A DNA stretch of 64,000 bases from IMG/VR virus record IMGVR_UViG_3300036399_001023. One strand, given 5' to 3'. The position numbers were made by a program, and so were the translations under genes. The notes under the pieces were generated by a model that was given only the letters and a program-made list of their open reading frames with translations, did no database searches and was not told where the DNA came from. The stretch comes from a virus (lineage: Duplodnaviria; Heunggongvirae; Uroviricota; Caudoviricetes). Each line of letters begins with the position of its first letter. Within the stretch, counting starts at the first letter, position 1. Below, in pieces: positions 19,262 through 64,000 of this stretch.

Positions 19262-19266
19262 ACTTG

Positions 19267-19330: not shown

Positions 19331-19336
19331 CCAACT

Positions 19337-22133: not shown

Positions 22134-22223
22134 TTGTCACCGTGGTGGGCCACTCCTGTGTCGTTCACCGGATATGGCCTGTGGGTGTGTTCTTTAACGA
22201 GTTTTCGAGGACTTGAAACTAAG

Positions 22224-22312
22224 TAGGCGTGTAGGGAGTCGAACCCTAACTAGCCGGTAATCTGCCGGAGAGGACTTTATAATGGTCCCTGTGCACCGTA
22301 CACCACACGCCC
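22224..22312 (-). tRNA. atypical type II tRNA, anticodon uncertain (UAU in a 7-nt loop with C.A closing mismatch, or a 9-nt loop CATTATAAA)
   Basis: acceptor GGGCGTG/CACGCCT (G.U first pair), T-arm TAGGG-TTCGACT-CCCTA, long variable hairpin CCGGCAGATTACCGG. Confidence 0.45.
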
Positions 22313-22354
22313 AGGATAGGGAACCACCGTGTGAGGTGGAACCCAAGGTAAAGC

Positions 22355-22519
22355 TCAGACAGAGGGAGTTTGAACTCCGACCGCCAAGTCAAATTCGTCT
22401 AGAGCACTTTGAACTTCAGTGCTGGTGCTTGCCTCGCTGAGTCTTAGGAGGAGCTTTGCGCCGTCGGGGTTTTCGACGCCAATTCGTGCGGCACGATCAA
22501 CTAGAGAAAGATTTGCCAT
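22355..22519 (-). CDS. small hypothetical protein (MANLSLVDRAAR...), paralog of 21640..21981 C-terminus
   Basis: listed 110-aa ORF trimmed because its 5' part overlaps tRNA-Arg. Confidence 0.35.
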   Translation of the reverse strand: MANLSLVDRAARIGVENPDGAKLLLRLSEASTSTEVQSALDEFDLAVGVQTPSV

Positions 22520-22566
22520 TTTGTATTGTTGCTGTTGTTGTTTAGTGTGGCTGCAAAGGCAACCTA

Positions 22567-22638
22567 CGCCCTGAGAGGGATTCGAACCCACGACCGGTGT
22601 CTTAGAAGGACAGTGCTCTTCCACTGAGCTACCAGGGC
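22567..22638 (-). tRNA. tRNA-Arg (anticodon UCU)
   Basis: hand-folded: acceptor GCCCTGG/TCAGGGC, D-arm GCTC-AGTGGAAGA-GAGC, anticodon loop CTTCTAA, T-loop TTCGAAT. Confidence 0.6.
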
Positions 22639-25035: not shown

Positions 25036-25863
25036 CTAGACAGTAGCCATTTCAAGGGCTACTTCCATGGCCCGCTGGTTGATGGTTGCGCCTTGACCGA
25101 AGTTTGCGTAACCGAAGCGTCCGGTCTCGCTCTTTCGACTACGATTGGAACTAAAGTCCGTAACCGCATTCATGGCATCGTAAAAGGTGCGACCTTCGTT
25201 ACCAGCGCCGTTGTAAAACAAGTCGTTGAGAACGTTGACATTGCGCATTTTGTCCGCTTCTTTCTTGTAAGTCGCCTCAAGGAAGGCACGGAATTGGGTT
25301 GAAGTGCAAGTTTCCGAGGCGATGACTTCAACGCTTTCAGAATACTTCTTCATGGCGCTATTCACAAAGTCAAGCACTGCGGTGCTCTCAAGAATGCGCT
25401 CGTTCACTCCGGAAGAGTGGCGGAATTTTTCTCCGATGTTAGAGTAAGCCATCGAAAAAGTGTTGCCGCAAATTACGCGAGTGGCAACCGGACCGATGGC
25501 CACGGAGGCGTTTCCCGTGTGCCCATTCAGAAGAGTAATGTAGGCGTTGTAGTCCTCGCCAACTACACGAAACTCCTGGTTGATTTTCGCCTGTGCAAAC
25601 ACCTTGGCCCCGTGAGCCAAGTATCCCATGTTTTCCACTACCAGAAGCCCCTCTTCAACCATAGGGTTGATCATCTGGAGAAGCTGGGCATTTTGCACCA
25701 CCTCGTACCCGGTGGAAACATATCCGAGGCGTTCGTCGGTGTCGTCTCGGTGTATCGCTTTGCGGTCTGGGTCCGCAACCCAGACTCCCTGGGAGTTAAG
25801 CGATGCCGTGGGCCTTGGGGAGACGGTCCAGTTAAGGTCGTTGGTGATGGCGAAAGCGGGCAT
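25036..25863 (-). CDS. DUF932-like phage/ICE-associated protein
   Basis: LLNGHTGNASVAIGPVATRVICGNT resembles the DUF932 core. Confidence 0.45.
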   Translation of the reverse strand: MPAFAITNDLNWTVSPRPTASLNSQGVWVADPDRKAIHRDDTDERLGYVSTGYEVVQNAQLLQMINPMVEEGLLVVENMGYLAHGAKVFAQAKINQEFRVVGEDYNAYITLLNGHTGNASVAIGPVATRVICGNTFSMAYSNIGEKFRHSSGVNERILESTAVLDFVNSAMKKYSESVEVIASETCTSTQFRAFLEATYKKEADKMRNVNVLNDLFYNGAGNEGRTFYDAMNAVTDFSSNRSRKSETGRFGYANFGQGATINQRAMEVALEMATV

Positions 25864-28558: not shown

Positions 28559-28744
28559 TTATTTCTCATGCGAAAGTAGTTGAAGAATCATCCAAAGGGC
28601 TCCCAACCCAAGTAGAAAGATTGGCACAAGGGTTGGTGAAAGCACTGTGAGCCAGGGCCAGGAAACCTGACCTGTTACCTTCAGAGTTATGAAAACGGTT
28701 TGCAGAACGATGCAGAGGGCACCCGGCAATTTGATCCAGATCAT
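28559..28744 (-). CDS. small membrane protein (tandem paralog 2, ..TGQVSWPWLTVLSP..)
   Basis: hydrophobic 61-aa ORF. Confidence 0.35.
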   Translation of the reverse strand: MIWIKLPGALCIVLQTVFITLKVTGQVSWPWLTVLSPTLVPIFLLGLGALWMILQLLSHEK

Positions 28745-30225
28745 GCTCCTTCAGCAAATACGGCACCGACAGCGTCGTACCTTTCAGTGTAAACAGCGTC
28801 ACGCATAACCCCTACAGGCGTAATTACCCCGCCAGTAAGCACAGCTTTCAGGATTGAAGGGCTGCATCCGGAGACCAGGCAAGTTCCCGTATCATGCATT
28901 TTCATAGGTACGTTGCCGCTAGAGCTAACATTCCAGAAGACAAGTTCCGGCAAGGAATACCCTGCTTGAGCATACTTGATTCGCACCGCCTCAAAGTTTG
29001 TTACCGAGTTGTTTCTGCAGCAGGAGTCAAACTGCATGTCTGAGACAATGATAAGCTTGCGAGGCATTTCCCCTTCAGGAATATGGTTCCTCGTTGCGGT
29101 AGCCAACACAAGATTGAAGACTGCCTGCAGGTCCGTATTCATTCCCCAGGATGCGTTGGAAAGGTTCCTGATGCGTTGAGCAATTGTAGAACCTGTGACC
29201 GTTTGCAGCTCGGGAGTTGCAGAGAATGTGAGGAACCTGTCTTTCCAGATTCCAGTGTTACGCTCAGCGATGTACATCGCCAGCGAGATTGAAACCGCCA
29301 TGGGCATGCCGCCGTTATTTCCCATTGATCCTGAGACGTCGGCAATTACCAGGCCGTTCAGCTGCTCTCCTTCCATGTAGTTGGGTAGAGCCTCCCACAT
29401 TAAGTTTAGAGTCTGATCGCTCCTCTCACCCCCGTAAAGGTACTTGTGCACGATCTCGTAAGGGTAGATCGTACCGGCATTGATTTTTGCCTCACCTTTC
29501 TCTACCGAGTCAAGGTAGGATTGGTAGCGGTCGCCGTCGCGCTTGGCGAAAGCTTTACGATACATGAAGCCTGCCCGAGAAGGCAACTTGCTATAGTCAA
29601 TGCTTTCCCACTCACGGGCACACATTGGCTGCTCAACAATCTTGACTTGTGACCTGAGGGCAGTCAGGGCTTTGCGGTACTGCCTCTCGGTCCAACCCAT
29701 TGCTTCGGCAATTTTTCGGCCAATCCTCTTAGAGTCCTGGCTGGAAGCGTTAATGGAAGGCAGCCACTTTGCCAGAAGTGACACTGACTTTCCAACTTCC
29801 GTATTTAGGTCGGCGTTCAGTTGTGCCTTAATTGCTTCGAGTGCGGTGCCCCAAACTAAGGTACCGTCGAGGGCTACCACATCATCCCAGCGACCGTACT
29901 GTGGAATCAGGCTAACTAGCCTGGCACCAATTGCAGCGTCATTGCGGACGAGTTCTTTAAAAACTTCTCGAAAGATCTTTCGCTCTCCCTGGCCCCCACG
30001 AATGTCGCGTGCCCAAAACAAGATTCGAGTTGCGGTCTCAGGGGCGTCTGCGTAGGCAAGGTTGAACAGTCGAGTTGCTTCGCTGATGTTGTCACGGCAA
30101 GCTGCAATCTTTCCAAAAAGGTCCAGGCACTTAGACTCGGTGGATTTGTATGCCTTTGCACCGTTAGCGGTGATGGTTTGGTTAAACTCGTTTTCGAGTG
30201 CGTTTAAAAAGGATGGCGTTGTCAT
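28741..30225 (-). CDS. rsr: Ro60/Rsr-like protein (TROVE-like N-terminal region + vWA domain)
   Basis: vWA MIDAS motif LVIADVSGSMGNNG and LIIVSDMQFD in C-terminal third; N-terminal FLNALENEF...NGAKAYKST typical of TROVE/DUF2828-type proteins; 494 aa. Confidence 0.5.
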   Translation of the reverse strand: MTTPSFLNALENEFNQTITANGAKAYKSTESKCLDLFGKIAACRDNISEATRLFNLAYADAPETATRILFWARDIRGGQGERKIFREVFKELVRNDAAIGARLVSLIPQYGRWDDVVALDGTLVWGTALEAIKAQLNADLNTEVGKSVSLLAKWLPSINASSQDSKRIGRKIAEAMGWTERQYRKALTALRSQVKIVEQPMCAREWESIDYSKLPSRAGFMYRKAFAKRDGDRYQSYLDSVEKGEAKINAGTIYPYEIVHKYLYGGERSDQTLNLMWEALPNYMEGEQLNGLVIADVSGSMGNNGGMPMAVSISLAMYIAERNTGIWKDRFLTFSATPELQTVTGSTIAQRIRNLSNASWGMNTDLQAVFNLVLATATRNHIPEGEMPRKLIIVSDMQFDSCCRNNSVTNFEAVRIKYAQAGYSLPELVFWNVSSSGNVPMKMHDTGTCLVSGCSPSILKAVLTGGVITPVGVMRDAVYTERYDAVGAVFAEGA

Positions 30226-31652: not shown

Positions 31653-32470
31653 TCACTTCGTGTTAAAAACACCCTCGGATAGGGAGAGCACGTTGGCACC
31701 GTTAATCAGAATCTTCTGAATACTGCCGTTTTTCATGGCTTCACGGAGAACCTCAAGACGTTGGTACTCAAGAGACTGCGAAGTCACTGTGGACGCCAGT
31801 GCCTTGTTTTCCTCGGCCTTAAGTTGAGCCGTTTCAGTCTTAACTTGCTGCTCTTTTAGGCCAGATTGGGCGGCAACTACACGATTCACCGACGCCACCA
31901 ATTCGTCTGGTAAGTCAGCTTTGCCTACGATGATGGAGTCGACGGTTATTTTACCGTCAAGGCCGTTCTTTCGAAGAGCTTCGGACAGGTTGGTTTTGAT
32001 TGTGTCTTGAATCTGTTCCAGGCTGCTGTTTACAGCTAGTGCGGGGAACTCATCGACAGACTGATTTACGGCGGATGTAATCAACCTGGAAATGTAGCTG
32101 GACATTAGTTGAAGCTGACCATTTTCGGCAATCCCGTGATTAGTCAGATCGTAGTTGGTGAAGAACTCGTAAAGGGAGTTAGGGTTGATGCTGTATGTTA
32201 CAGTAACATCCATCTCTTTCATGATGGTGTTGTCCTTGGTCTTCGGGCGAAGGTCGTTTGCAGTTACCGTGATCTTTCGGGTGTTGAACACCTTAATGGA
32301 TCCGAACCCGTCGTACTTAATGCCTGGTGTCAGAACCTCGTTTTTTCACTTGGCCGTCGAAACCGACATAGAGCCCGTTTTCACCGGTGTTGATCGTAGT
32401 GAACTGACCAGCGGTGAGGGCGAGAAGGAGAGCACCGGCACCAACGCCGATACCAATTTTTGCGAGTGAC
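31653..32470 (-). CDS. SPFH/band-7 (prohibitin/HflK-like) protein interrupted by a frameshift at a T7/A7 homopolymer (about 32342..32350)
   Basis: upstream frame MSLAKIGIGVGAGALLLALTAG..GLYVGFDGQVKK ends in stop; downstream frame continues ..EVLTPGIKYDGFGSIKVFNTRKITVTA..; together a canonical TM+SPFH N-terminus. Confidence 0.5.
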
Positions 32471-32513: not shown

Positions 32514-32891
32514 CTAGGACTCTTCATTTTCGTCTTCTTGAATTGAACTAACGGCGTCATCGTACCAACACCAGTTATCAACCCCAAATTGATGAAGAGC
32601 GTTGAGTTCGAGTTGCCCTTCAACTAATCTTTCGTATTCGGTTTTTGAAATCGTGACGGTTTCCATAATTAAAAGAGCGAGTGTTAATCCGGAGAAATGC
32701 CGGCGTAAATAAACGCAACTGCGACACAAAGGAGGAGCGCTAGCGGTACAATTTTGAGGAAGAACACCACTGGAAGTCCCCTCAAAAGAAGAATGAGCAG
32801 AAGTAGGGACATGCCAGCAGCGACACCAAGAACTCGCATTAGCATGTGGGGTTACAGGGTGGAGAACTTTTGTAATTGTGTCGCACGGCAA
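32514..32891 (-). CDS. hypothetical protein
   Basis: ORF track 125 aa. Confidence 0.35.
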   Translation of the reverse strand: MPCDTITKVLHPVTPHANASSWCRCWHVPTSAHSSFEGTSSGVLPQNCTASAPPLCRSCVYLRRHFSGLTLALLIMETVTISKTEYERLVEGQLELNALHQFGVDNWCWYDDAVSSIQEDENEES

Positions 32892-33468: not shown

Positions 33469-34206
33469 CTAAGCAAACTGAACAAGGGTCTGTTCTTCCA
33501 GGTTCCACACACAGAGGCGAGCGTGCGCCGGGTCAAAACTTTTCTGAGTGCTGCCACCCATCTGACCGTCGAGAACCAGGCTCTTCTCGCTCGTGTGAAC
33601 GTGGTGGTAGTGCCCTGCGACACGAACCCAGGTCCGATCGCATTCCTCTTCCCACCAATAGACGCGAGTCTCATCTTGAGGGTACACCGCGCCGGGGCGG
33701 CGAGGGCCAAACAGCATGTAGTCCTTGGCTTTTCTCGTCACCTCGTTCACACGGTACACTCCAGTGTAAGACGGTGGAACAAGAACCCACTTCGGAAACA
33801 TCGCGTGAGCACAACGGTACTCTGTCCCTCTGGAATCTCGCAAGGCAACCCCGTAGGGAAAAGTTTCCAGCCAGGCAGAGACTTCCTCAATAGGGATACC
33901 TGCGTCTGAGAAGTCTTGTACGGTACGCTCAAAGCCCTCTTTAAGAACCACGTTGTTCCCGCGAGCGTAACGCTCCAGCTTGTTTTGATGGTTGCTTCGA
34001 AGCACAATCGCCCCTTCTTCCACGGCTTGCCGAACGGCTTTGTACACACCTGCGCTGTCGCTTGTTTCCATGCGAGAGTCAAAAAGGTCGCCGAGGAAAA
34101 TTGGTGTGCAATTTGCTCCTCGGCAATAATCGAGCGCTTTGAGCAGGGGCTTTCTCTGAGAGTGTAGGTCGCCGATGAAGGCAAAATTGGAAGTAACGTT
34201 ATTCAT
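33469..34206 (-). CDS. calcineurin-like metallophosphoesterase (second copy)
   Basis: FIGDLHS, FLGDLFDS, SNHQ motifs; start ATG 6 nt after the cassette -10 box. Confidence 0.6.
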   Translation of the reverse strand: MNNVTSNFAFIGDLHSQRKPLLKALDYCRGANCTPIFLGDLFDSRMETSDSAGVYKAVRQAVEEGAIVLRSNHQNKLERYARGNNVVLKEGFERTVQDFSDAGIPIEEVSAWLETFPYGVALRDSRGTEYRCAHAMFPKWVLVPPSYTGVYRVNEVTRKAKDYMLFGPRRPGAVYPQDETRVYWWEEECDRTWVRVAGHYHHVHTSEKSLVLDGQMGGSTQKSFDPAHARLCVWNLEEQTLVQFA

Positions 34207-34875: not shown

Positions 34876-35385
34876 TCATCGCACGTACCGTACGAGAGTG
34901 ACGTCCGCAATATCGTGGCAGGACAGGGAGAAACTTTCAAGCATTTTTACTATCGTGTCTTCGTTACCGCCAGCGAGACCGCACCCGATGTATGGGAGTC
35001 CTACCGCAAACTTCCTGTCTAGTGGCGCAGCCATGGCGCCGCTCCTCAAAAAAGTTTGAAAACTTTTGAGAAAGTCTCGGAAAAAGTCATACTCGAAAAT
35101 GTCTTTGCCCCTTCCGTAAGAGTACTGAGTATATGCGTTGACAATGTGAAAAGTATGGTTACCGCTCCCTTGAACCTGTGCCATGGTAAAACGACCGAGT
35201 TTGCCCCGGTCCCCTGCCCGAGTGGAAAGGTCAACGTTCGCTGCTTCAGGGTGCTCACGGCTAATTTGCCCCGCGATGCCTGAAGCCATCTTATTAAAAC
35301 AATTGGCGCCGTGGACAATTATGTCAAACTGACCCTTGCGAGCCATTGACAACAAGTCCCCGTTGGCCCGATGAAGTGTACTCAT
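34876..35385 (-). CDS. macro-domain protein (ADP-ribose binding/processing)
   Basis: FDIIVHGANCFNKMASGIAGQI and GCGLAGG resemble macro-domain motifs (D.IVNAAN...GGGV / G.G..G). Confidence 0.55.
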   Translation of the reverse strand: MSTLHRANGDLLSMARKGQFDIIVHGANCFNKMASGIAGQISREHPEAANVDLSTRAGDRGKLGRFTMAQVQGSGNHTFHIVNAYTQYSYGRGKDIFEYDFFRDFLKSFQTFLRSGAMAAPLDRKFAVGLPYIGCGLAGGNEDTIVKMLESFSLSCHDIADVTLVRYVR

Positions 35386-37859: not shown

Positions 37860-38993
37860 ATGAGAAATTGCTACACATACAGAGTGGGTTGGTCCCGGTT
37901 CAATAAGTACTACTACGGAGTTAGATTCGCCAAAGGATGTCACCCTGCTGACCTTTGGGTTGCCTATTTCACCAGCTCCCGGCATGTAAAAGCATTTAGA
38001 AAAGTTCACGGGGAGCCAGATATCCTGGAAGTGAGAAAAACTTTTGGAGACGAACCTAAAAAGGCAGCCGAATGGGAACAAACTGTTTTACGAAGACTAA
38101 ACATAGAGTTCAACGAACTATACTTAAACAGAAGCCGAAAGAACGCTTTCGGGGCCAAGGGGGCGCCATGGAATGTGGGTAGAACCAAGGAGAATTGCCC
38201 CGTGACACATTTAACTGCGGAGAAGATTAGCAAGACTAGAAAAGGTTTTAAAGCCTCAGAAGAAACTAAGAAGAAACTGTCTATGGCTGCAAAGGGAAGA
38301 GCCGAAGAAAATTCCTGGAAGCAGCTATTAAAAAGTCCAGCAATTAGAAACAGATTTCACTCCTATAAACATTTCTTAGTTGAGATAGAAAACCTATACG
38401 AGTCTTGTTGGGGTATCGCGGAGGTCATTTCAAAAGCCCTGGGAGTAAACGTCAGAGGCGTTGCTAAAGCCCTAGAGCGCCTAAATCTGACTTCTTTGAA
38501 CGACCAGCAGAGAACTAAAGTGTATAATAAGTACGGGAACAGGTTCTCTAGTTACAGCGACTACTGCATAAGTATCTTGGTTTTACATCTCAAGGGCTAC
38601 ACTCCCAGTCAAATTGGTAGTCAGTTGGATGTGAATGAATGCGGAGTGGGGAACCTTCTTCTCAGGGTTGATTTAACCCCAAACAAGGCCAAAACGGGAC
38701 CGTCAAAGCCCGCTTTTAAGAAGGTACTGATTGCTGATGCTCTTGAAGCTAAAAGCACCACATTCACTCTTGAAGACAATCCCCTCCCGGAGAGTCTTAT
38801 TGTTAAGTTGAGAGAAACCGTCTGCCATACCGAGGATCTCTTCCACACCCATATCCTTTATAGAGAAGCTTCCCAACACAGGGACGTGGCCCAAACCAAA
38901 TTGATCGCAAAAGTTTTTCCTTTCCAGGGGGGTCATGTACCTCCCCATATCCGTAAGGTAGACATCAAAAACAAAGAACTTGAAGTCATTTAG
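37860..38993 (+). mobile_element. free-standing GIY-YIG homing endonuclease gene (only clear plus-strand gene), in AT-richer island 37170..39000
   Basis: N-terminus CYTYRVGWSRFNKYYYGVR (GIY...YIG variant) followed by repeated NUMOD-like R/K-rich modules; its 3' 290 nt overlap the 3' end of the minus-strand ligase gene. Confidence 0.6.
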
Positions 38994-39755
38994 CTTGTAG
39001 ATGTTTTGCTGGATTTTTGGGCCTACAACTTCTCCCTGTACAGCCACATTGTCAAACCCTGCAGTCTTCAGTTTTTCTTCTAGATTGACTTTTCTAGCGA
39101 CGGACCAATAAGTGTTATTATTATCCTCTTTTAGGTCTAAGTTACGGGAGCAAACTCCGAACTCTCCGTTGTTAAGGTACATCGTACAAGATGTACCCTC
39201 TAGTTTCTCCGTAACTTCGTATACAACATTCTTGTATTCCCCCAGTTTGTCGTATAGAGATTGAACTCTCGGCTGATCCGTTTTGGTAATGTAGCTCGGG
39301 AAGTTTCCACGAACTTGTCCGGCAAGGCATGCGGGGACCGGAGCTTCCCACTTTTGAATACCGAGGAGTTCGGTAACATCGTCACCTTCCCTTACAAAGC
39401 GTAAGAAGCCGTCATCACCTTTGACTTGGAAGAATCCTCCGTTCAATGTCTCCACGAACGGTAGCAACAACCCCTGAGAAAGTTGCTTTTTCAGCCGAAT
39501 TGTTCTTAATTTCTCCCCCCTTACCCCCTTATACTCCTTCGGTTCTTTCCCCTTAGACAGAGTAGGATCCAGTACATGGGGCACAAACGAGTCTGGCTCC
39601 AGGTAAACTGCCAAGTCCCCAACCTCATACTTACCTACAGAGTCAACAACCCACCACCCATTAACACGGTAGGCACAGATTCTGTCTGCTTCAGGGATAG
39701 AGCGAACCTCAGCGATTCGCTGGACGGAGGCGAGTTTGCGTTCGATGTTTGCCAT
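38703..39755 (-). CDS. ATP-dependent ligase-family nucleotidyltransferase (RNA-ligase-like)
   Basis: motif I-like EKLEGTS, motif III-like FVFDVY, motif IV EGIVFKS near C-terminus. Confidence 0.5.
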   Translation of the reverse strand: MANIERKLASVQRIAEVRSIPEADRICAYRVNGWWVVDSVGKYEVGDLAVYLEPDSFVPHVLDPTLSKGKEPKEYKGVRGEKLRTIRLKKQLSQGLLLPFVETLNGGFFQVKGDDGFLRFVREGDDVTELLGIQKWEAPVPACLAGQVRGNFPSYITKTDQPRVQSLYDKLGEYKNVVYEVTEKLEGTSCTMYLNNGEFGVCSRNLDLKEDNNNTYWSVARKVNLEEKLKTAGFDNVAVQGEVVGPKIQQNIYKLNDFKFFVFDVYLTDMGRYMTPLERKNFCDQFGLGHVPVLGSFSIKDMGVEEILGMADGFSQLNNKTLREGIVFKSECGAFSFKSISNQYLLKSGL

Positions 39756-50925: not shown

Positions 50926-52098
50926 TCAGGCAATCCCAAGCAAAACGTCGAGCTTTTTTGGGGTTAAACCTTCGAGCCACTCTGCAAAGGATCCGACTTT
51001 GCCGGATCGAATCGCAAAGCATGCTCCAGAAAGTTCTTTTGACTCGGCAAGTACGGCTTGAGCGAAATCCTTTTGGTTAAGATGGTTGAAACTCGCCATT
51101 AGCCACTCCACCGAAGTTCCCATTTGGTTAATGGTGTGAGAATAAACGTTGAAGCCGTCGCGGTACTCAGGGAAGTGAAGCAGAAACTCTTCCAAGTCGT
51201 CGTTCAGGAAAAGCTCGGAGAAATCCGGATCCCCGTTACCACGCGCACGGTGCAACTGACAGTATAGATCGGACTTTGCTTTCGCACGACCATCACCGTC
51301 AAAGAGAATGAAGCCTTCGTGTTCCGCGCCACGATTGTTGACAACGGCCATCAGACCCTCCATGCTCCCTAGTTCGTAGGACTTGGCAGTCTCGTATCCG
51401 TACCTCAAACCGAACTCCTCCAGCTCAAGCTCCTCGAAGTCTTGGGTACGATCGCGCACAGCCAGCATCGGCAGCTGGGGCTCGGCGTAGTCCACAACGA
51501 TGCGGTTGTCACGGTGGCAAAGCTCAAAGATGTAGCAAAGCTCCACGTCAAGCCACTCTCGAGAATACCCAACTTCGTTAAAAACGTGCCAAAACAGCTC
51601 AGCGAACGAACGACCGGTTGAGCCTACCTCCGACGCTGCTGCAACGCTTCCTGAAGTTGAGACTATCCAATCCCCACGATAACTAAAAAGTTTGCACAAA
51701 CTCCCATCGTATTTTTCAAATACTTGAGTGCGAGACCAGTCCAGTTCGTGGCAGTGGCCTTCGCCAACGTTGAAAAAGCGGTCGAAGGCGTACGCAACCA
51801 GCCGAAAGTACGGGGAGCCCGTGCCATCATCAACAAGTTCGACTACGGCACCACGGCAGGCACGAACGATTGGCAGCGACTTGTCCGCCATTACACTGCC
51901 GTACTTTAAGTTGTAGAGAGCAGGGTAACGCTCGTCGCGAGCAACACGAATGTCGTGCTCGGCAAGTGCTTCAAAAGCAGTCTCGACCCTGTAGTTTAAC
52001 CAGTCGATTAGAAAGTGGCGCAGGTTCAATTCCATTTTGTTAGTATGGTGTTTCAGCCGATAAGTAAAAAAAAAAGGGGGGGCAAACCGCCCTTTCAA
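50926..52098 (-). CDS. Rnl1-family RNA ligase (T4 gp63-like)
   Basis: VFEKYDGSL matches the Rnl1 motif I (KxDG; T4 Rnl1 Lys99 in ..EKEDGSL..); size 390 aa. Confidence 0.55.
   Translation of the reverse strand: MKGRFAPPFFFTYRLKHHTNKMELNLRHFLIDWLNYRVETAFEALAEHDIRVARDERYPALYNLKYGSVMADKSLPIVRACRGAVVELVDDGTGSPYFRLVAYAFDRFFNVGEGHCHELDWSRTQVFEKYDGSLCKLFSYRGDWIVSTSGSVAAASEVGSTGRSFAELFWHVFNEVGYSREWLDVELCYIFELCHRDNRIVVDYAEPQLPMLAVRDRTQDFEELELEEFGLRYGYETAKSYELGSMEGLMAVVNNRGAEHEGFILFDGDGRAKAKSDLYCQLHRARGNGDPDFSELFLNDDLEEFLLHFPEYRDGFNVYSHTINQMGTSVEWLMASFNHLNQKDFAQAVLAESKELSGACFAIRSGKVGSFAEWLEGLTPKKLDVLLGIA
52040..52093 (-). promoter_or_regulatory. cassette variant with strong terminator (minus GGGCGG-TTT-GCCCCCCC + T10)
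   Basis: ttagtatggtg...taagt-a10-g7-caaaccgccc. Confidence 0.5.
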
Positions 52099-56998: not shown

Positions 56999-57376
56999 TC
57001 AGTCGTAAAGGTCCCAAAGATTTCTATAGGTAATATCTTGAGTTATGGAATCCAGTTTAACCTGCCCATTACCAATAAGGTCTGTAATTCTCTGTAGTTC
57101 TCCGAGTATCTTATGCCCATGAACGGAGTCGTCCGGTGTGGTTTGCTCAGGGTTGCTGTTTTGCTGGGCGGGTAGCGTATAGCTCCCACTCAATGCTTCC
57201 GTAGCCGTCTCTAGGCACCTTTTGCAAGGAATTAAGCGACCCTCGTTCATTTGAGCGTGCGCAGCATGGTCTAAACTCTGAAACACCCAGTCGGAGCTAC
57301 AAAGGGTTCTCCCGCACCAGGACGTTCCCTTCATGTCCTCGTGGGTGTGTCGTATACACTGCCCAGAGTCAGACAT
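56999..57376 (-). CDS. Cys-rich hypothetical protein
   Basis: ORF track 157 aa trimmed to MSDSGQCIRHTHED... Confidence 0.3.
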   Translation of the reverse strand: MSDSGQCIRHTHEDMKGTSWCGRTLCSSDWVFQSLDHAAHAQMNEGRLIPCKRCLETATEALSGSYTLPAQQNSNPEQTTPDDSVHGHKILGELQRITDLIGNGQVKLDSITQDITYRNLWDLYD

Positions 57377-57959
57377 AGACGTACTCACGCCACTCTTCAA
57401 CTTCCGCCGTGCTGATTGTAACGGACATTTTGCTGTAAGGTGCCTTCGGTTTTGAGGCGAGAGTGGTGCCACGTCGAGTGACGCGGGTTTCCATCATCCC
57501 AATCTGAAAGCTATCCCAGCTGAAAGGCAGCGAAGAGACATTCGTGGTTTCCTTTGCAAACACCTTCTTTAGGGCAACCGCCCACTCTTCCGGAGTGCGA
57601 TTGTCCTTGCAATTGTTGCACTCAAGGCAGCTGGTGACAAGGTTTTGCCAAGTGTCCTGCCCTCCTCTTGACTTCGGCATCACATGGTCCAAGGTTAGTT
57701 TCGGACCGGAGTACTCGCAATACTGGCAGGTGTGATTGTCCCGTTTTAGAATCAAGGTGCGAGAGGGCTTCGCCGCTGCCATCTTGGCTTGGGGAACCTT
57801 AACGTACGTCTTTAGGCGAATGGTGCGGCTGGACACGACATGGGCCTTATCCTTCAACACAAGCACTCTAGCTCTACGCCATGAGGTCTGGTTCAAGGGT
57901 TCGTACGTGGCATTTAAAACCAGAATGGTTTTCTTGTATGCGATTGTCTTGTAGTCCAT
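57369..57959 (-). CDS. HNH endonuclease
   Basis: HTCQYCEYSGPKLTLDHVMPKSRGGQDTWQNLVTSCLECNNCK (HNH with zinc Cys pairs). Confidence 0.7.
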   Translation of the reverse strand: MDYKTIAYKKTILVLNATYEPLNQTSWRRARVLVLKDKAHVVSSRTIRLKTYVKVPQAKMAAAKPSRTLILKRDNHTCQYCEYSGPKLTLDHVMPKSRGGQDTWQNLVTSCLECNNCKDNRTPEEWAVALKKVFAKETTNVSSLPFSWDSFQIGMMETRVTRRGTTLASKPKAPYSKMSVTISTAEVEEWREYVYV

Positions 57960-58058
57960 GACCTTGGTGATTTAAGTGTTTCCCCATCGCACGAGGGAAC
58001 GTCAGTTCTTTCAGAATTATACCCCGGAACAGGGGGTGTAAACCCCCTTGTACCAAGC

Positions 58059-59573
58059 CTAAGCTGCGGGGTTGAGAAGTCGAGTACGAATGTTAGGCAG
58101 TGAGTTCACATCCTCCCCGTAAACCACGCTGTTTAAGAACACGGTGCGAAGCTCGCCTCGCCGCTCTTGCTCACGAGTCTGCTGTTGATGAAGAACAAAG
58201 TTCTCCCCATCCTTTTCAACTCGCAGTAGACCCAACGCCGATTTTTTCGTGCCGCGATCTGTAATAGGGTCCTTCATAGTTTCAACGGCGACACCGTTAA
58301 TTTGCCCCCAGGTCGTTTTGTATGCGATACCGAACGTGTCCCGTGTATGGTATTGATAGGTGTAGGACCCGATACCAAACACGATGTTTTCGGACGCCCA
58401 CCCAAGCTGCCTCATGTGCTCTAGGATGGCCCTGGCTCGTGGAAGAGTGATCGAGTCGCCGTAAATTAAGCCAACTCGAGGGTTCAGCACCTTGAAACCC
58501 TTCTCGTTCACAGTCCCACCGAAGACCTCCCAAAGGAGCTCAAGCGAGCCTTTGTACTCTCGGCTACCTGGCTCAGCGTCAGCGTCACCGCAGATAATTT
58601 TCTCAGGGTCACCGCTGTCGGGACGGAAGACGACCTTGGCCAGCCCTAGCCCGTTTGGCTTACGGCTCAGAATAGCTTCTTTCAGTTTGGGTGCAGTAAC
58701 TGTGAGAGTGTCCCAGTAATTCCACGTGTCACTGACTACACTAATAACCCCCGAGGGGTAAACTTTCGAGATAATCCGGCGAATTGTCTCGACTTCGTTT
58801 TCCCTGCCTCCGAGGCAAGTTACACTGTGTTCTGTGGCGGGGACACTCCCACCAATAAACTCTGAACCGCAATCGTAGTAATCCTCCAAATAGTCAATGG
58901 AAAGGATTGTGTCCGTGCCCTTGAAGGAGAAAAGGTGGCCGATTTGGTGCGCAGCGGCATCGTGAATGCCTCCGACTCCGCGAGCGGAGAAGTCGTGCCC
59001 CTGAAAGTCAACAAACTGCGGATTACTCCCTGTGATTTCAGCGTAGTGGTCGAGAAGACGGCGAAACTCGTAGGCGATGGTTGCCACGTTGATGGCCTTC
59101 CACAGCTCAGACGACTTGGCGGTTTCGACATAGTTGGTTAGCCACGGGGCCAGCCACTTGAAGTCATTGTGAGTGTTTTGCGCCGTCAAAAACGGCACTC
59201 CAATGTTAACACGGCTACCCTCGGGCAGTGCCTTCACATGTAGCGGCATGTAGCCCAGGTCGTGAAGCTCAGCAATGTGGTCAGTGCCGACAACACCTTC
59301 TCCGAGCGAGGAGTCCATTCGCCGCTTGTATTTGTCCAACACCTTGGCCTTGGGTTGCTGAAAAAAGGTCTCATTCCAAAGATCCCTCAGCATCCACTTC
59401 ATTGTCCCTTGAATGTTCGCTACAACGATCTTGTGGTCGAAGTCAGCGGGCATGTTCGCCAGACGGTCGGACCTTGCCGTCATGTTGGCGTAGATTACTT
59501 CGGTGCCTTCAGGGTTTTGCGAAGGGTGTCCCGTCTTGTAAAAGTCGGTTGCGTGGGGCGCAAAAATTTTCAT
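58059..59573 (-). CDS. nadV: nicotinamide phosphoribosyltransferase family protein (NadV/NAMPT; alternatively Namat-type ADPR-transferase of NARP1)
   Basis: 504 aa; N-terminus MKIFAPHATDFYKTGH and overall length typical of NAMPT; ATGA overlap with upstream Prs-like gene. Confidence 0.75.
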   Translation of the reverse strand: MKIFAPHATDFYKTGHPSQNPEGTEVIYANMTARSDRLANMPADFDHKIVVANIQGTMKWMLRDLWNETFFQQPKAKVLDKYKRRMDSSLGEGVVGTDHIAELHDLGYMPLHVKALPEGSRVNIGVPFLTAQNTHNDFKWLAPWLTNYVETAKSSELWKAINVATIAYEFRRLLDHYAEITGSNPQFVDFQGHDFSARGVGGIHDAAAHQIGHLFSFKGTDTILSIDYLEDYYDCGSEFIGGSVPATEHSVTCLGGRENEVETIRRIISKVYPSGVISVVSDTWNYWDTLTVTAPKLKEAILSRKPNGLGLAKVVFRPDSGDPEKIICGDADAEPGSREYKGSLELLWEVFGGTVNEKGFKVLNPRVGLIYGDSITLPRARAILEHMRQLGWASENIVFGIGSYTYQYHTRDTFGIAYKTTWGQINGVAVETMKDPITDRGTKKSALGLLRVEKDGENFVLHQQQTREQERRGELRTVFLNSVVYGEDVNSLPNIRTRLLNPAA

Positions 59574-60583
59574 GGTTGGTTGCGTGGGGTGGGGTAGTTT
59601 TCGGTACGAAGGTAGGTCAAGTACGAGGGTAACTCTTGGTAAAAGGCTTTATACGGGAGCAAGTTCGCAACGAAAAAGTTGTCGATTAAGCTCCCAAACA
59701 CCTTAAAACCCTTGGAGAAAATTCCGTGAGTTACATAGAGGTCAATTCGAGACGGGTCGAACTGACGTAGCACCTTGGCGAGTTCGATAAAGGTGCGACC
59801 GCCATCGCAGATGTCGTCCACAATCAGAAGGTTTTTGCCCTTGTAACTGACGTCTTCTGGAACTTCCGTCCTTAGGATTTGCCCGTCTTCAGGGTTGCGA
59901 ACTTTCGTAGCGTACACTACAGAGTGGAGCCCCAGTGTTTGTTGTACGAGGGTTGCTCTTTCGACTGCACCTTTATCCGGAGCAATCACAATTGTCTCAG
60001 CACTAAACTCTTGCCCCCGGTCTTTGAACTTCTGGAGAAACAGTTGGGGTTGTAGGTTGTTGAACTCGCAGCCGATTTCGGTTCGAAAGAGCTCATTTGC
60101 AACGTGGCTGTGCACGTCCCATGTGTACACCCGGTCGCACACTCCCTTAAGATAAGGGGCGAGAGCTTTTACAAAAGTTCTTAGCGAAAACGCTTCCCCT
60201 TCAGCGCACTGGCGGTCTTGGCGGCTATAAGGTAAGTACGGGATGTCCAATTGTAGACTTCGCAGCACAGGAAGGTCTTTGATGGCCGACAGAGTCAGAA
60301 GAAGTTCTGCGAAACTTTCTCCGCTGTGTATGTCTGCGTCTACGATAATGTCAGTCGAATTTGTTGGAGTGTCGTGCAACCGGACCTGCCTTTCACCGGC
60401 ACTGAACGTAAAGGAGGTCTTTGAAATCTTGTACAGGTTTTGTCCGTCGCGATTCGAGTAAACCTCAATCGGCTCTGTTTTCTGATACTCTTTAGTTTCG
60501 GTCACGTGCATTGTTGTTTTACGGTGTGAGCTTACTATAGCTTGTTTAGGGGCGAGGGTAAAGGACGGTTTCCCGCCGCGCAC
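59570..60583 (-). CDS. prs: ribose-phosphate pyrophosphokinase family protein (Prs; alternatively Adps-type ADPR pyrophosphokinase of NARP1)
   Basis: 337 aa; DLYVTHGIFS matches the Prs ribose-5-P binding loop; translationally coupled to NAMPT-like gene. Confidence 0.7.
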   Translation of the reverse strand: MRGGKPSFTLAPKQAIVSSHRKTTMHVTETKEYQKTEPIEVYSNRDGQNLYKISKTSFTFSAGERQVRLHDTPTNSTDIIVDADIHSGESFAELLLTLSAIKDLPVLRSLQLDIPYLPYSRQDRQCAEGEAFSLRTFVKALAPYLKGVCDRVYTWDVHSHVANELFRTEIGCEFNNLQPQLFLQKFKDRGQEFSAETIVIAPDKGAVERATLVQQTLGLHSVVYATKVRNPEDGQILRTEVPEDVSYKGKNLLIVDDICDGGRTFIELAKVLRQFDPSRIDLYVTHGIFSKGFKVFGSLIDNFFVANLLPYKAFYQELPSYLTYLRTENYPTPRNQP

Positions 60584-60592
60584 GGGGTAAAA

Positions 60593-60859
60593 CTAGACCT
60601 TGTACCCACTTCCGCTGCACTCGTACGGTAAGTCCTGCAGTACTCGATAGAAAAGCTCACGGTATGCCTCGAAGGCGACCCTATCCATCCACAACACGGC
60701 GGAGATCTGTATACCGGGGGACTCTGCAAATTCTTTCGCAGTTGAACGAAGGTAGCAGTCTCCAATCGCCCCGTCTCTCTCAAACTTCTCATAGTCTTCG
60801 ATTAGTTGTTGGAGGTTTTGCTTGGTCAGTGTTTGGATTCTGTCTCTAATGGGTATCAT
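60593..60859 (-). CDS. hypothetical protein
   Basis: ORF track 88 aa. Confidence 0.35.
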   Translation of the reverse strand: MIPIRDRIQTLTKQNLQQLIEDYEKFERDGAIGDCYLRSTAKEFAESPGIQISAVLWMDRVAFEAYRELFYRVLQDLPYECSGSGYKV

Positions 60860-60885
60860 TGGGTTTGCTCCGGCGAGTGGGTTAT

Positions 60886-61224
60886 CTAGGGAACGCTAGT
60901 GTGAAAGGGCGGTACATACTGAGCCTCTTCGGATAAGTCGAGACTTTCTTGCGCGAGTTGCTCGTAGGAGAGCAGCTTAATTGAGAGAGCACAATCGAAC
61001 GCTTTCGCCACTTTTACAAGAAGCTCTAGGCTATGGTCGTTTACCTCGGGGTCTTCTAACCTCTCTATAACTCCCACTTTAACTCCAGCCTTATCTGCAA
61101 GTTGTTGTTTTGTCAGACCTCGCTTTTGTCTGTTTATTTTTACTTGCCAGGAAATCGCTTGCTCAATGGATGCTTCCATATAAGCTTCCCGGTACTCTTT
61201 GTCGTCCCACTGCGGGTTTGTCAT
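60886..61224 (-). CDS. HTH (XRE-like) DNA-binding protein
   Basis: GLTKQQLADKAGVKVGVIERLE helix-turn-helix pattern; GAAGGA SD upstream. Confidence 0.4.
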   Translation of the reverse strand: MTNPQWDDKEYREAYMEASIEQAISWQVKINRQKRGLTKQQLADKAGVKVGVIERLEDPEVNDHSLELLVKVAKAFDCALSIKLLSYEQLAQESLDLSEEAQYVPPFHTSVP

Positions 61225-61240
61225 TACGGGTGTCCTTCAG

Positions 61241-61291
61241 CTCATTTAGTATACCGTTTCTGCTTTGCAGAGACAAGCCGGGAAACCGCCC
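61241..61291 (-). promoter_or_regulatory. cassette, CTCATTTAGTATACCG subfamily
   Basis: ctcatttagtataccg-tttctgctttgcagagac-aagccgggaaaccgccc. Confidence 0.55.
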
Positions 61292-61308
61292 AAAAGGTTA
61301 ACGTAGGT

Positions 61309-61650
61309 TTAGTTGGGGGCAGCCCGTAAGGGTTCCTCTGCTGCCGCCCTTAAAATCTCGTCTATTTGCCTGTGCGCCCTAGTGCTCTTCATACCAGAAA
61401 CAGCCTGCGTCATTTCTATAAATGACATTACGTGGTAAATCTGTTCCACCCAAAGAGGTTTATTGACATCGCTATCCTCGCTGTAGTCGTTTACATACAA
61501 TCCCTTCATCTCGTAGTACTGCTTAAGTGACATGCAAGGGTTTACACCCAGCTGCAAATAAACGTAGTTGCAACAAGCTTCTTCAAGGTCTAGTTCTGTC
61601 AACTTAGACCGCTCAAGTCGTTCTTTTATGTCCTGTCGAAAGTTGGTCAT
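61309..61650 (-). CDS. hypothetical protein
   Basis: ORF track 113 aa. Confidence 0.35.
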   Translation of the reverse strand: MTNFRQDIKERLERSKLTELDLEEACCNYVYLQLGVNPCMSLKQYYEMKGLYVNDYSEDSDVNKPLWVEQIYHVMSFIEMTQAVSGMKSTRAHRQIDEILRAAAEEPLRAAPN

Positions 61651-61715
61651 TTTGTGGGGAGGAGAAGTGAAAAAAGGAAAGAGGGGGGTTTCCCCTCCCT
61701 TTTATTAGACGGGGA

Positions 61716-62282
61716 TCAGAACTTGAAACCGAGGCCAACGGTGCCGACAGGTGCGTAGGCCGTCCCCGAAACACCATTCGTTTGAGTGGGGAACTTCACG
61801 TCAGCGAACCCGACGAGGGACGGCGAGAAGGAACGCTCAACACCTGCAACGAAGAGGAACTGGGATCCTTGTCCTACACTTGTCTGGTAGTTGGCTTGTC
61901 CGTTGTTCGTCAACGCCCATTGACCACCTACACCAACGTAAACGTTCGTGTCACTCATATACGAATCAGCAACTTCGCGTCCGGTTAAGGAGAAATCAAC
62001 GGTGCCAAGGACACCAGCGGCAGAGCCAATTTGGCTGTCGGGGCCAGCCGCAAAGTTAAAGAAAGGGCGAACAGAGGCGGATACATTGGATGGTTCGCTC
62101 AGACGGAACCGCGACTGAACCGCGACTCCAGCGACGGTGCGGTTCGAAGTGTACTCAGTACCGTCAACTCCTTGGCGGTTAAGATTCACTCCAACTCCGA
62201 CGTAGTTTCCAACCTCGGACGCCATTACAGGAGTTGACAGGAAGGAGACAACTGCCAATGCGGCAATAAGTTTAAAAGTCAT
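61716..62282 (-). CDS. secreted outer-membrane beta-barrel-like protein (Lom/Ail/OmpX-like), signal peptide, C-terminal Phe
   Basis: start moved to MTFKLIAALAVVSFLSTPVMA (signal peptide); alternating hydrophobic beta-strand pattern; ends GLGFKF. Confidence 0.45.
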   Translation of the reverse strand: MTFKLIAALAVVSFLSTPVMASEVGNYVGVGVNLNRQGVDGTEYTSNRTVAGVAVQSRFRLSEPSNVSASVRPFFNFAAGPDSQIGSAAGVLGTVDFSLTGREVADSYMSDTNVYVGVGGQWALTNNGQANYQTSVGQGSQFLFVAGVERSFSPSLVGFADVKFPTQTNGVSGTAYAPVGTVGLGFKF

Positions 62283-62406
62283 GTTTGTTTTTGTGTGTGT
62301 GTTTTCTGTACAGAACCGGGTTACAATTCCCGGAAAGTAGTTGTAAGGGTGCGAACCTTTGCAAAACTTTGCTAACCCTCTTAGAGTTACAACTACGGTG
62401 GTTGTG

Positions 62407-62652
62407 TTAGTTCTCAGGACTTGTGGAGCCATGGCCAGGGCCATAAGTGCAAAGAGCGACAGGGCTGCCGTTCTCCGTACCTTCGGTCCAGTTTCCCCCG
62501 GATCGAACACAGTCACTCATTCTGTACGGACTTTTACCGAATAGTAAACTCGATGAAATAGAAAGGAGTATGAGAGTGATGGACACGCAAATTACGAGTT
62601 CTAAGATGGTGAAGCCGTTGGGTTCTTTCTGCTTAAGCTGTAACATTTTCAT
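62407..62652 (-). CDS. type IV prepilin / pseudopilin-like protein
   Basis: N-terminal KQKEPNGFTILELVICVSITLILL = G|FT(L/I)(L/I)E prepilin-peptidase motif plus hydrophobic helix. Confidence 0.35.
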   Translation of the reverse strand: MKMLQLKQKEPNGFTILELVICVSITLILLSISSSLLFGKSPYRMSDCVRSGGNWTEGTENGSPVALCTYGPGHGSTSPEN

Positions 62653-62968: not shown

Positions 62969-63343
62969 CTAAATGCGAGTGATGCAAACGTTAGCGAGTC
63001 CACTCTCAGTTACTCGAAGACGCTGAGCAGATCCGTGCCCCAGGTCGATGATTCGTCCACCGACATAGGGTCCTCGGTCGTTAATGCGAACGTCGGCAAT
63101 AAGCCCGTTGTCGCGATTAACAACTCGCACCCAAGACCCGAGGGGGAGGTACGGGTGGGCAGCGGTCATGGTTCCGGGTCGGAAAGTCTCTCCGTTGGCA
63201 GTTTTATTTCCGTAGAGGCCTGGACCGTACCAGCTGGCTTGACCACACTGCCTTGCTTGAGCGGGTGCTCCGGAGAGAAGTCCGGCGGCTAGAAAGAATG
63301 AAACGAATCTTGTAAGACGCATGAAAAAAGTAGAGTTCAACAT
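62969..63343 (-). CDS. RlpA-like double-psi beta-barrel protein with signal peptide
   Basis: ASWYGPGLYGNKTANGETF...AAH..LPLGSWVRVVNRDNG....VRINDRGPYVGGRIIDLG matches the RlpA/DPBB core; start trimmed to avoid promoter cassette. Confidence 0.6.
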   Translation of the reverse strand: MLNSTFFMRLTRFVSFFLAAGLLSGAPAQARQCGQASWYGPGLYGNKTANGETFRPGTMTAAHPYLPLGSWVRVVNRDNGLIADVRINDRGPYVGGRIIDLGHGSAQRLRVTESGLANVCITRI

Positions 63344-63430
63344 CCGTGTTTGTTGCATTGCGCAACCACGGCTCAGAGCCCGTTGGCCCAGCGAAGGTGT
63401 ACCTAGCTGAAGCTGTTTCGGGCTGGACCC

Positions 63431-63476
63431 CAGTATAACTCGTAAAGAGCCTAAGGTAAAGTTCGGGAAACCGCCC
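63431..63476 (-). promoter_or_regulatory. cassette variant; minus TTTACC-17nt-TATACT
   Basis: cagtataactcg...aaagttcgggaaaccgccc. Confidence 0.45.
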
Positions 63477-63477
63477 A

Positions 63478-64000
63478 TCAACCTTCCTCCTGGCGCAGCA
63501 TCGCCAAGTTGTTTTCGTAGAAGAGGCGAAGGTTGTCGTAGGTTTTGACCGGCTGATCGTAGTAACTGCTTCCATTGTAAGTTGGAAGGGAAGCCCATTC
63601 TGGTGCGAGTCTTGCGAGTAGAGTTGGGGTAATCTTCCCAGAGTCAGCGAGGTGCAAAGCGTCGCGTCGCTCGATTAAGTACAAGGCTGCCTGGTCTTGG
63701 CTGGCTGGCCCGAAGTCATTGAGACCTAGTTTGATGGACGCCTCTCGCCAAGTGGCGGGCATAAACTGGTAAGCGCCCGCCGCTGCGCTAGCATAACGCA
63801 GCGAGTAACGTACTTGATTTGGATGTCTGTCTAGCGTGGACACCGTTCCACCCCCAAATACAACCCGGTAGCCATCACTATGGCCTTCTTTCCAGGTTCC
63901 TTCAGCGAAGCGAATGGTGTTTAACAGGGCTCTACGCTCAGGTGTGAGCTTGTAAGCGAGAGTCGGCAGAGAATTGATTGGACCGCAGCCTGTGCAAATG
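63478..64000 (-). CDS. lambda R-like lytic transglycosylase (GH104 endolysin), 5' end beyond window
   Basis: manual upstream translation ..LNTIRFAEGTWKEGHSDGYRVVFGGG..HP..AGAYQFMPATWREASIKLGLNDFGPASQDQAALYLIERRDAL..WASLP parallels lambda R LDMLAWSEGT..GYDVIVGG..HP..GAGRYQLLSRWW..LGLKDFSPKSQDAVALQQI; frame stays open to 64000. Confidence 0.65.
   Translation of the reverse strand, partial: ICTGCGPINSLPTLAYKLTPERRALLNTIRFAEGTWKEGHSDGYRVVFGGGTVSTLDRHPNQVRYSLRYASAAAGAYQFMPATWREASIKLGLNDFGPASQDQAALYLIERRDALHLADSGKITPTLLARLAPEWASLPTYNGSSYYDQPVKTYDNLRLFYENNLAMLRQEEG

Follow-up and report, generated by a model that had tools for sequence, protein, structure and literature searches.

The gene pair and its layout

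The window analysed here is a stretch of 64,000 nucleotides from the IMG/VR virus record IMGVR_UViG_3300036399_001023 (Caudoviricetes). It is part of an uncultivated jumbo phage, and the subject of this work is a pair of genes on its minus strand, a Prs-like gene followed by a NAMPT-like gene (Table 1). Judging by their sequences, these genes are very probably the adps-namat operon of nicotinamide adenine dinucleotide (NAD+) reconstitution pathway 1 (NARP1), a system described in 2024 and present in approximately 4% of sequenced phages. On the plus strand, the tetranucleotide TCAT at 59570..59573 corresponds to ATGA on the minus strand, the TGA stop codon of adps (59572..59570) overlapping the ATG of namat (59573..59571). 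The original prediction had placed both open reading frames (ORFs) and the ATGA overlap at these same positions, naming no strand, and had claimed a translationally coupled pair of NAD+ reconstitution genes, whose families have now been confirmed with Pfam, PHROGs and NCBIfam. The upstream product belongs to the ribose-phosphate pyrophosphokinase family (Pfam Pribosyltran, Pribosyltran_N and Pribosyl_synth; phrog_619, E 8e-65), and the downstream product to the nicotinamide/nicotinate phosphoribosyltransferase family (PF04095 NAPRTase, E 6e-34; phrog_448, E 3e-177).

The adps ORF remains open upstream to a GTG at 60583 (ORF 59570..60583). This GTG was considered as a start codon and rejected, as it merely opens the ORF, the likely start being the ATG at 60511. 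The latter is favoured because a product of 313 residues results from most of the gene calls made in near-identical contigs from metagenomes, and because a promoter-like site, TTTACC-17-TATAGT, lies inside the GTG extension. As a promoter of adps, this site is a weak candidate proposed from its match to the consensus.

The downstream product as a Namat

The structure of the Namat of phage SpβL1 has been solved with nicotinamide and with NAD+ (PDB 9W5X, 9W5W; PMC12774641). When the NAMPT-like protein of the window was compared with the PDB, these two entries were the best matches (E 1e-130, 440 bits), with human NAMPT at 189 bits. In Namat, a "selectivity clamp" formed by two parts, a helix and a variable loop, holds the adenine of ADP-ribose pyrophosphate (ADPR-PP); the helix follows the consensus GS-X-Φ-X-Φ-X-Φ-TRD, with an aromatic residue at each of positions 3 and 7, and the third loop position contributes an Arg, Lys or Tyr for stacking (PMC12774641). 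The clamp helix of the window protein, GSYTYQYHTRD (residues 402-412), has this Namat-only motif, whereas human NAMPT reads GGGLLQKLTRD at the same position and the Nampts of phages phiEap-3 and BcepSaruman, of the PRPP-preferring type, read GGGLLQ and GGALLQ. In the clamp loop, R37 of the window protein is aligned with R40 of SpβL1 Namat, although this arginine is a weak discriminator, the loop being variable across the family.

Among the 20 residues of SpβL1 Namat that contact NAD+, 18 are identical in the window protein, and the two changes (A362S and F392Y) are the states found in the Namats of ICP1 and Felixounavirus. The catalytic core is intact, with F189, R192, D215, R306 and D308 of SpβL1 Namat corresponding to F195, R198, D221, R317 and D319 in the window, and the catalytic His is present in the sequence GHDFS; this core is common to Nampt and Namat, and does not discriminate between them. 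In a neighbour-joining tree of 14 sequences, the window protein groups with the Namats linked to Adps, and human NAMPT and the proteins of phiEap-3 and BcepSaruman lie elsewhere. The identities obtained with tblastn are bimodal, at 38-60% in the phage records with a demonstrated neighbouring Adps gene, and at approximately 31-33% in phiEap-3 and BcepSaruman, the two retrieved records that lack a neighbouring Prs-like gene.

The third-best PDB match, 9KE8/9KEO, is a solved "nicotinamide phosphoribosyltransferase" that groups with the Namats in the tree and has the clamp sequence GAQTYQRNTRD, with Gln and Arg where Namats carry aromatics. Knowing which substrate this protein prefers could help to evaluate the clamp rule.

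The upstream product as an Adps

Structures and assays of the Adps of phage ICP1 have indicated how a Prs-type enzyme can act on ADP-ribose (PMC13586617). In this protein, ADP-ribose sits on the ancestral acceptor surface (F18', R87, F92, H121, D161, D212 and D213), the PP loop (C215-S220) and a β-hairpin with K185 are remodelled to hold ATP, and the C-terminal α11-α12 module of PRPS, concerned with filament formation and regulation, has been lost, a loss that occurs throughout Adps and has been called the defining signature of the family (PMC13586617).

The donor (PP) loop of the Prs-like protein of the window, DDICDGGRTF, is identical to that of the Felixounavirus Adps, for which phage mio was used as reference; ICP1 Adps reads DDICDGAASF and E. 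coli Prs DDMIDTGGT. Bas63, whose operon produces ADPR-PP in vivo, in infected cells, is also a Felixounavirus. Residues F36, R97, H134, D179, K203, D232, D233 and D236 of the window protein align with F18, R87, H121, D161, K185, D212, D213 and D216 of ICP1 Adps, K203 thus occupying the place of the catalytic K185. The AlphaFold2 model (pLDDT, the predicted local distance difference test, 88.7) finishes with a strand (residues 298-303) and a disordered tail, without C-terminal helices; the hhalign alignment with E. coli Prs ends at residue 286 of 315, and the tail that follows the HGIFS motif has 52 residues in the window protein, 39-52 in Adps and 66 in E. coli Prs. At the other end, an N-terminal extension of approximately 30 residues provides extra β-strands in the model. 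Foldseek searches with this model returned PRPS matches only, from PDB sets that do not include the ICP1 Adps entries.

Profile scores point in the same direction. Against TIGR01251 and PRK01259, respectively, E. coli Prs scores 423 and 533 bits, ICP1 Adps 98 and 80, Felixounavirus Adps 123 and 93, and the window protein 129 and 85. Thus, on the curated Prs models, the window protein is at the level of proven Adps enzymes, 3-6 times below E. coli Prs. It reaches no NCBIfam Prs equivalog cutoff (PRK00934, 122 bits against 296; PRK01259, against 297; the other equivalogs lower), and passes the cutoff of the broad TIGR01251 alone (113 bits). Since pairwise BLAST scores are too close to decide, the assignment to Adps, a very diverse family, is based on the motifs, the profile scores, the C-terminal truncation and the linkage to namat.

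The original prediction had mentioned two options, one of them NARP1, and had left the choice between Adps/Namat and Prs/NadV open. The clamp motif, the PP loop, the profile scores, the tree and the structure matches decide for Adps/Namat, and a clustering of both proteins with housekeeping Prs and NadV, the outcome that would have spoken for the other option, was not what was found, as the tree, the 440 against 189 bits and the Prs cutoffs indicate.

Linkage and relatives

The conservation of the pair was studied in a sample of 80 IMG/VR viral loci and 80 bacterial genome loci, all of them encoding an Adps homologue. In 79 of the 80 viral and 78 of the 80 bacterial loci, a Namat homologue is present at no more than 3 kb from it, and the aromatic clamp G-[SA]-[YF]-x-[YF]-[QNE]-x-x-[TS]-RD appears in all the readable ones (77/77 viral, 77/77 bacterial). 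These counts agree with the published figure, according to which 97% of Adps have a Namat nearby, and the published criterion for NARP1 is a Prs-family gene with a Nampt-family gene within 10 genes. The peptide IVDDICDG was one of the patterns with which the IMG/VR and bacterial sets were searched, for which reason the conservation of the PP loop in these sets is discounted as evidence; the searches did not include the Namat motif as a pattern. The PP-loop motif DDICD-G-x-x-[ST]-F is common to 104 of 120 word-indexed homologues. The 4-base overlap between adps and namat occurs in 9 of 79 related viral loci, including the closest viral relatives (loci L017-L019), most of the others having gaps of 0-70 nucleotides (nt); it is an ordinary operon architecture and no statistical oddity.

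An Adps homologue was found in 1490 phage records, and a megablast of positions 57000..62000 against 50,697 phage records (INPHARED) gave no DNA match. IMG/VR contigs of 277,244 and 67,388 bp encode a protein with 100% identity to the Prs-like one, whose relatives at 56-62% identity come from viral contigs that reach 279 kb in length. Among annotated sequences, those closest to the pair are bacterial prs-nadV operons (in Acinetobacter, 60% identity for the NadV-like protein and 36% for prsA_2). It was already reported in 2008, in a study of NrtR (PMC2330246), that these operons, for which that study reached no explanation, use a second prs paralogue and are de-repressed by ADP-ribose and not by phosphoribosyl pyrophosphate (PRPP) or ribose-5-phosphate. 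This pattern fits the chemistry of NARP1, and a homologue from Paenibacillus foliorum works as a bacterial NARP1 (PMC12774641).

The record CAKLQF020000015.1 ("Acinetobacter phage MD-2021a", locus L007) resembles a bacterial chromosome (fepC, an AraC regulator, a TauE exporter and a metH-like gene), and carries a prsA_2 - nadV-like - Nudix-type operon with the Namat clamp and the Adps loop, features by which it is classed as a bacterial NARP1-like pair. Taking into account the structure of this operon, its third gene, annotated as "bifunctional NMNAT/ADPR pyrophosphatase", is probably an NrtR regulator, as in the prs-nadV-nrtR operons of Acinetobacter.

Comparison with known systems

By every sequence-level criterion applied, the window pair agrees with the NARP1 of SpβL1, Bas63 and ICP1 (Osterman et al. 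2024, bioRxiv 10.1101/2024.02.11.579819; PMC12774641; PMC13586617). The order, adps then namat, and the families are the same, as are the clamp motif and NAD+-contact residues of Namat and the PP loop, catalytic Lys and C-terminal truncation of Adps. It differs in its sequences, with 42-47% (Namat) and 31-35% (Adps) identity to the characterised members, in the N-terminal β-extension of Adps, in the HNH gene that follows namat, and in being placed in an uncultivated phage genome of approximately 277 kb. The bacterial prs-nadV/NrtR operons (Acinetobacter, Shewanella and others, PMC2330246; P. foliorum, PMC12774641) have the same type of clamp (GSFTYNYLTRD) and the sequence DDICDG; these operons are chromosomal and often joined to the ADP-ribose-sensing NrtR, whereas the window copy sits among phage genes, and no NrtR-like gene was found near it.

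The NARP1-AP of Vibrio phage Gary (Adps-Adpp-Namat; bioRxiv 10.64898/2026.01.28.702374) is made up of three protein families that are all encoded in the window, although the three-gene arrangement is absent, the macro-domain gene being 23 kb away from the operon. With the NARP2 of Vibrio phage KVP40 (Nampt and Nmnat), the pair has in common the NAMPT fold and the restoration of NAD+ as its aim; it differs in having the Namat clamp instead of the GGxLLQ of phiEap-3, BcepSaruman and human NAMPT, in the adjacent Adps, and in that no credible Nmnat was found in the window. Thus, as far as can be read from the sequences, the window pair includes no canonical Prs, and is neither a NARP2 pair nor a NARP1-AP operon in the defined sense. 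It is a further example of a known system, NARP1, and brings no new mechanism.

Proposed mechanism

Gene order, overlap, family membership, family-specific signatures and conserved linkage can be read directly from the window and its relatives; substrates, products and action against defences would be those of the homologous SpβL1, Bas63 and ICP1 enzymes. In the process so proposed, adps and namat would be co-transcribed, and the ATGA overlap would couple their translation. A host NADase of the SIR2, TIR or SEFIR type would split NAD+ into ADP-ribose and nicotinamide. Adps would then move the β,γ-pyrophosphate of ATP to the 1'' hydroxyl of ADP-ribose, which would yield ADPR-PP, and Namat would swap the pyrophosphate of this compound for nicotinamide, giving NAD+ directly, with neither a nicotinamide mononucleotide (NMN) intermediate nor an NMNAT.

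Alternative explanations

Some points weigh against the assignment of the pair to NARP1. The residue F92 of ICP1 Adps, which contacts the adenine of ADP-ribose, is a Cys in the window protein, at a position that varies among Adps. The Prs-like protein has a low pairwise similarity to proven Adps enzymes (31-35% identity, 100-106 bits), modestly above that to E. coli Prs (75 bits), Namat enzymes form NMN from PRPP in vitro, and the entire case is built on homology. The competing explanation would be a classical non-deamidating salvage, in which a dedicated PRPP synthetase and a NadV/Nampt would produce NMN, and NAD+ would be finished by a host NMNAT or by the nucleotidyltransferase encoded elsewhere in the window (Table 1). 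The names in the databases, uniformly Prs and NadV, the NMN-forming activity that Namat retains in vitro, and the fact that the closest annotated relatives have long been taken as a PRPP-to-NMN salvage (PMC2330246) all speak for it. However, all the discriminating residues are in their Namat and Adps states, the Prs equivalog thresholds are not reached, and the candidate NMNAT lacks support, as detailed below. Moreover, the bacterial operons on which the salvage reading was founded also carry the Namat clamp and the DDICDG loop, and their second prs paralogue, their response to ADP-ribose and the working NARP1 of Paenibacillus argue for the other chemistry. Classical salvage is therefore considered very improbable.

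It has also been asked, in the original prediction, whether a macro domain in the window could process ADP-ribose derivatives. The domain is real and, by its sequence matches, of the Poa1p-like (Adpp) type; a part in the pathway is putative, as the gene lies 23 kb from the operon and the family is frequent in phages where it stands apart from a NARP1 operon or where none seems to be present. The protein matches phrog_335 ("phosphatase", E 2e-38), has no Pfam match at E<=0.01 and none in NCBIfam, and gives weak macrodomain matches in the PDB, among them yeast Poa1p (6LFU). With tblastn it matched 2728 phage records, some annotated as "Macro_Poa1p_like" or "phosphatase". It shares 32% identity (E 4e-17) with the middle gene product of an Adps-macro-Namat operon in Vibrio phage Chester, a Thalassavirus with the same arrangement as Vibrio phage Gary. 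According to the preprint on aRES (bioRxiv 10.64898/2026.01.28.702374), approximately 15% of NARP1 operons include such a macro protein, named Adpp, which converts ADPR-1''-phosphate to ADP-ribose, the former being released together with nicotinamide when aRES-type defences cleave NAD+. An unlinked macro phosphatase of this family might thus feed ADP-ribose to Adps and extend the reach of the system to aRES, as a dispersed form of NARP1-AP that would add to the assignment of the pair to NARP1 and not replace it. Nevertheless, the definition of NARP1-AP requires the gene of the macro-domain phosphatase to lie no more than two genes away from the pair, and no macro gene was found within that distance of the window pair, whose flanks are an HNH gene, an ORF of 88 residues and a gene for a helix-turn-helix (HTH) protein. 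The macro family occurs in more phage records than the Adps homologue, its best match, in Synechococcus phage B23, has neither adps nor namat within 4 kb, and a macro gene lies near Adps in just 5 of the 80 viral and 1 of the 80 bacterial loci. A role in RNA repair is equally plausible, since the window encodes RNA ligases and a polynucleotide kinase; the own role of yeast Poa1p concerns the by-products of tRNA splicing. The dispersed arrangement is thus regarded as a tentative possibility, on the doubtful side.

The nucleotidyltransferase had been put forward as a NadM-like enzyme that would complete the classical route. Its motifs are indeed present, GHPGH spanning residues 13-17 and SSTALR residues 120-125, and neither varies among 34 homologues; however, (H/T)xGH and ISSTxxR define the superfamily and not NMNAT, a function for which profiles, fold and neighbours give no specific support. 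If the protein were an NMNAT, it would convert NMN to NAD+, the NMN coming from the PRPP side reaction of Namat or from defences that form NMN and adenosine monophosphate (AMP), and the phage would possess a hybrid of NARP1 and an NMNAT route. In favour of this proposal, the model has a confident nucleotidyltransferase fold (pLDDT 94.9), NadM and archaeal NMNAT are among the structural and profile matches, a distant cyanophage homologue is annotated as NMNAT, and the gene co-occurs with NARP1 on related contigs of 105-280 kb. However, the GenBank name of the cyanophage homologue is the sole source of that label, and this protein scores 23 bits against a cutoff of 127. The window protein likewise reaches no curated NMNAT cutoff, its Pfam match being the generic CTP_transf_like alone, at threshold, and its NCBIfam match the generic TIGR00125 (22.1 bits against a cutoff of 27.7). 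A single-sequence search of the PDB gave noise and matches to the N-terminal motif only, and the family profile matched glycerol-3-phosphate cytidylyltransferase best (E 2e-5), with NMNATs at approximately 0.02-0.04. Foldseek, with template modelling (TM) scores of 0.60-0.65, ranked PPAT first (TM approximately 0.64), with NadM about equal and both ahead of NMNAT. Archaeal NMNAT has a nicotinamide-binding motif, DIxxNxxW, which was not seen by eye in the window protein, and no similarity was detected to the "NMNAT/ADPR pyrophosphatase" gene of the Acinetobacter locus L007.

The neighbours of the nucleotidyltransferase are also informative. The run 17151..20015 consists of the nucleotidyltransferase, a kinase, a metallophosphoesterase and a flap endonuclease, and the same four-gene order recurs in distant phage contigs (L097-L100) in which the transferase is only 47% identical. 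The best solved relatives of the kinase are the kinase domain of Clostridium thermocellum Pnkp, PSTK and T4 Pnk. Thus, the cluster looks like nucleic-acid end processing and not like NAD salvage, and the nucleotidyltransferase may have a role not described so far in what could be a module for end healing or repair. On this evidence, the hybrid is very unlikely. An even broader proposal, in which this lineage would carry a dispersed NAD+ repair kit made up of NARP1, the unlinked Adpp-like macro phosphatase and a new small HxGH NMNAT family, is very improbable. If it were true, the macro phosphatase would handle the ADPR-1''-phosphate made by aRES, the NMNAT would turn the PRPP side reaction of Namat into a NARP2-like route and reverse the splitting of NAD+ into NMN and AMP, and the reported absence of phages pairing NARP1 with an NMNAT-based route would be contradicted.

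Neighbouring genes and genome context

The HNH gene downstream of namat adjoins the operon, and is probably a mobile element rather than an enzyme of the pathway. Between both genes, sequence inspection revealed a 7-bp GC-rich stem-loop without a T-run (58048..58031), followed by a perfect TATAAT (58021..58016). Downstream of namat, an HNH gene is present in 10 of the 80 viral loci, and its identities do not match those of adps; the identities of HNH and Namat stay high where that of Adps drops, as in L027 (41% Adps, 70% Namat, 78% HNH), and the relative L024 shows 57% Adps, 88% Namat and 78% HNH. This suggests a modular exchange, in which recombination associated with the homing endonuclease would shuffle namat alleles independently of adps. 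The GC content is uniform around the pair, at approximately 50%, with no sign of recent transfer.

Directly upstream of adps, an ORF of 88 residues without a family match (60593..60859) is kept in the same position in jumbo-phage relatives, with 41-92% identity, and is absent beyond that lineage; it might be a lineage-specific member of the operon. Further upstream, the order DPBB, pilin-like, SLH-like and adps-namat-HNH is kept in relatives, two of which (L004 and L006) insert a PstS-like phosphate-binding protein before adps.

Table 1. Genes and other features of the 64,000-nucleotide window, ordered by position.
Feature	Position	Strand	Remarks
APH-like kinase	4301..5053	minus	
MobA-like NTP transferase	5034..5747	minus	
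TET-associated glycosyltransferase	6172..7038	minus	PF20691
R2K ATP-grasp	7088..7852	minus	
Rv2179c-like 3'-5' exoribonuclease domain	8038..8631	minus	
Tet_JBP dioxygenase	9084..10571	minus	
5'-3' flap endonuclease	17151..18035	minus	
Calcineurin-like metallophosphoesterase	18079..18879	minus	
Pnkp-like P-loop polynucleotide kinase	18797..19261	minus	
HxGH nucleotidyltransferase	19512..20015	minus	GHPGH and SSTALR motifs
Three tRNA genes (Ser-CGA, Ile-TAT, Arg-TCT)	22049..22638	minus	
DUF932 protein	25036..25863		
DUF2828+DUF7788 protein	28741..30225		
Band_7/SPFH protein	31653..32291		
T7 gp5.9-like RecBCD inhibitor domain	32514..32891		PF25708, E 8e-15
Second metallophosphoesterase	33469..34206		
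Poa1p-like macro-domain protein (Adpp-like, putative ADP-ribose-1''-phosphate phosphatase)	34876..35385	minus	23 kb from operon
RNA ligase PF09414 with PHA02142 OB domain	38703..39755		
T4 Rnl1-like RNA ligase	50926..52098		
HNH endonuclease	57369..57959	minus	PF01844, E 7e-14; 99 nt downstream of namat
Putative namat (NAMPT-family gene)	58059..59573	minus	504 aa
adps/namat stop/start overlap ATGA	59570..59573	minus	Direct sequence reading
Putative adps (Prs-family gene)	59570..60511	minus	313 aa counted from the ATG at 60511
Promoter-like TTTACC-17-TATAGT	60562..60534	minus	Consensus scan, 9/12 matches; 22 nt upstream of adps ATG
Signal-peptide protein	61716..62516		Upstream of operon; relatives give weak SLH match
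Protein with prepilin N-terminal methylation motif	62407..62652		Upstream of operon
RlpA-like DPBB_1 protein	62969..63598		Upstream of operon

Nearly all the genes of the window are on one strand. The genes at 4301..10571, on the minus strand, form a TET/JBP-type DNA base hypermodification cluster, which suggests that the phage would oxidise and then decorate 5-methylcytosine in its own DNA. The two RNA ligases, the polynucleotide kinase, the two metallophosphoesterases and the Poa1p-like macro protein constitute an extensive RNA-repair toolkit, directed perhaps against anticodon nucleases, and the RecBCD inhibitor-like, Band_7/SPFH, DUF2828+DUF7788 and DUF932 genes, in the same one-strand block, look like further counter-defence or auxiliary genes. 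The window also encodes a thymidylate kinase.

Significance

The published rules concerning the Namat clamp, the donor loop of Adps and its C-terminal truncation suffice to resolve from sequence the misannotation of these pairs as "Prs + NadV", and this has been achieved here in a divergent, uncultivated genome of approximately 277 kb. NARP1 is thereby extended to a lineage for which the nearest annotated counterparts are bacterial prs-nadV operons induced by ADP-ribose. The practical value of the finding lies in the correct annotation of the pair and in the pointer that it gives to the hosts, in the sense that the bacteria infected by this phage lineage probably use NAD+-depleting defences.

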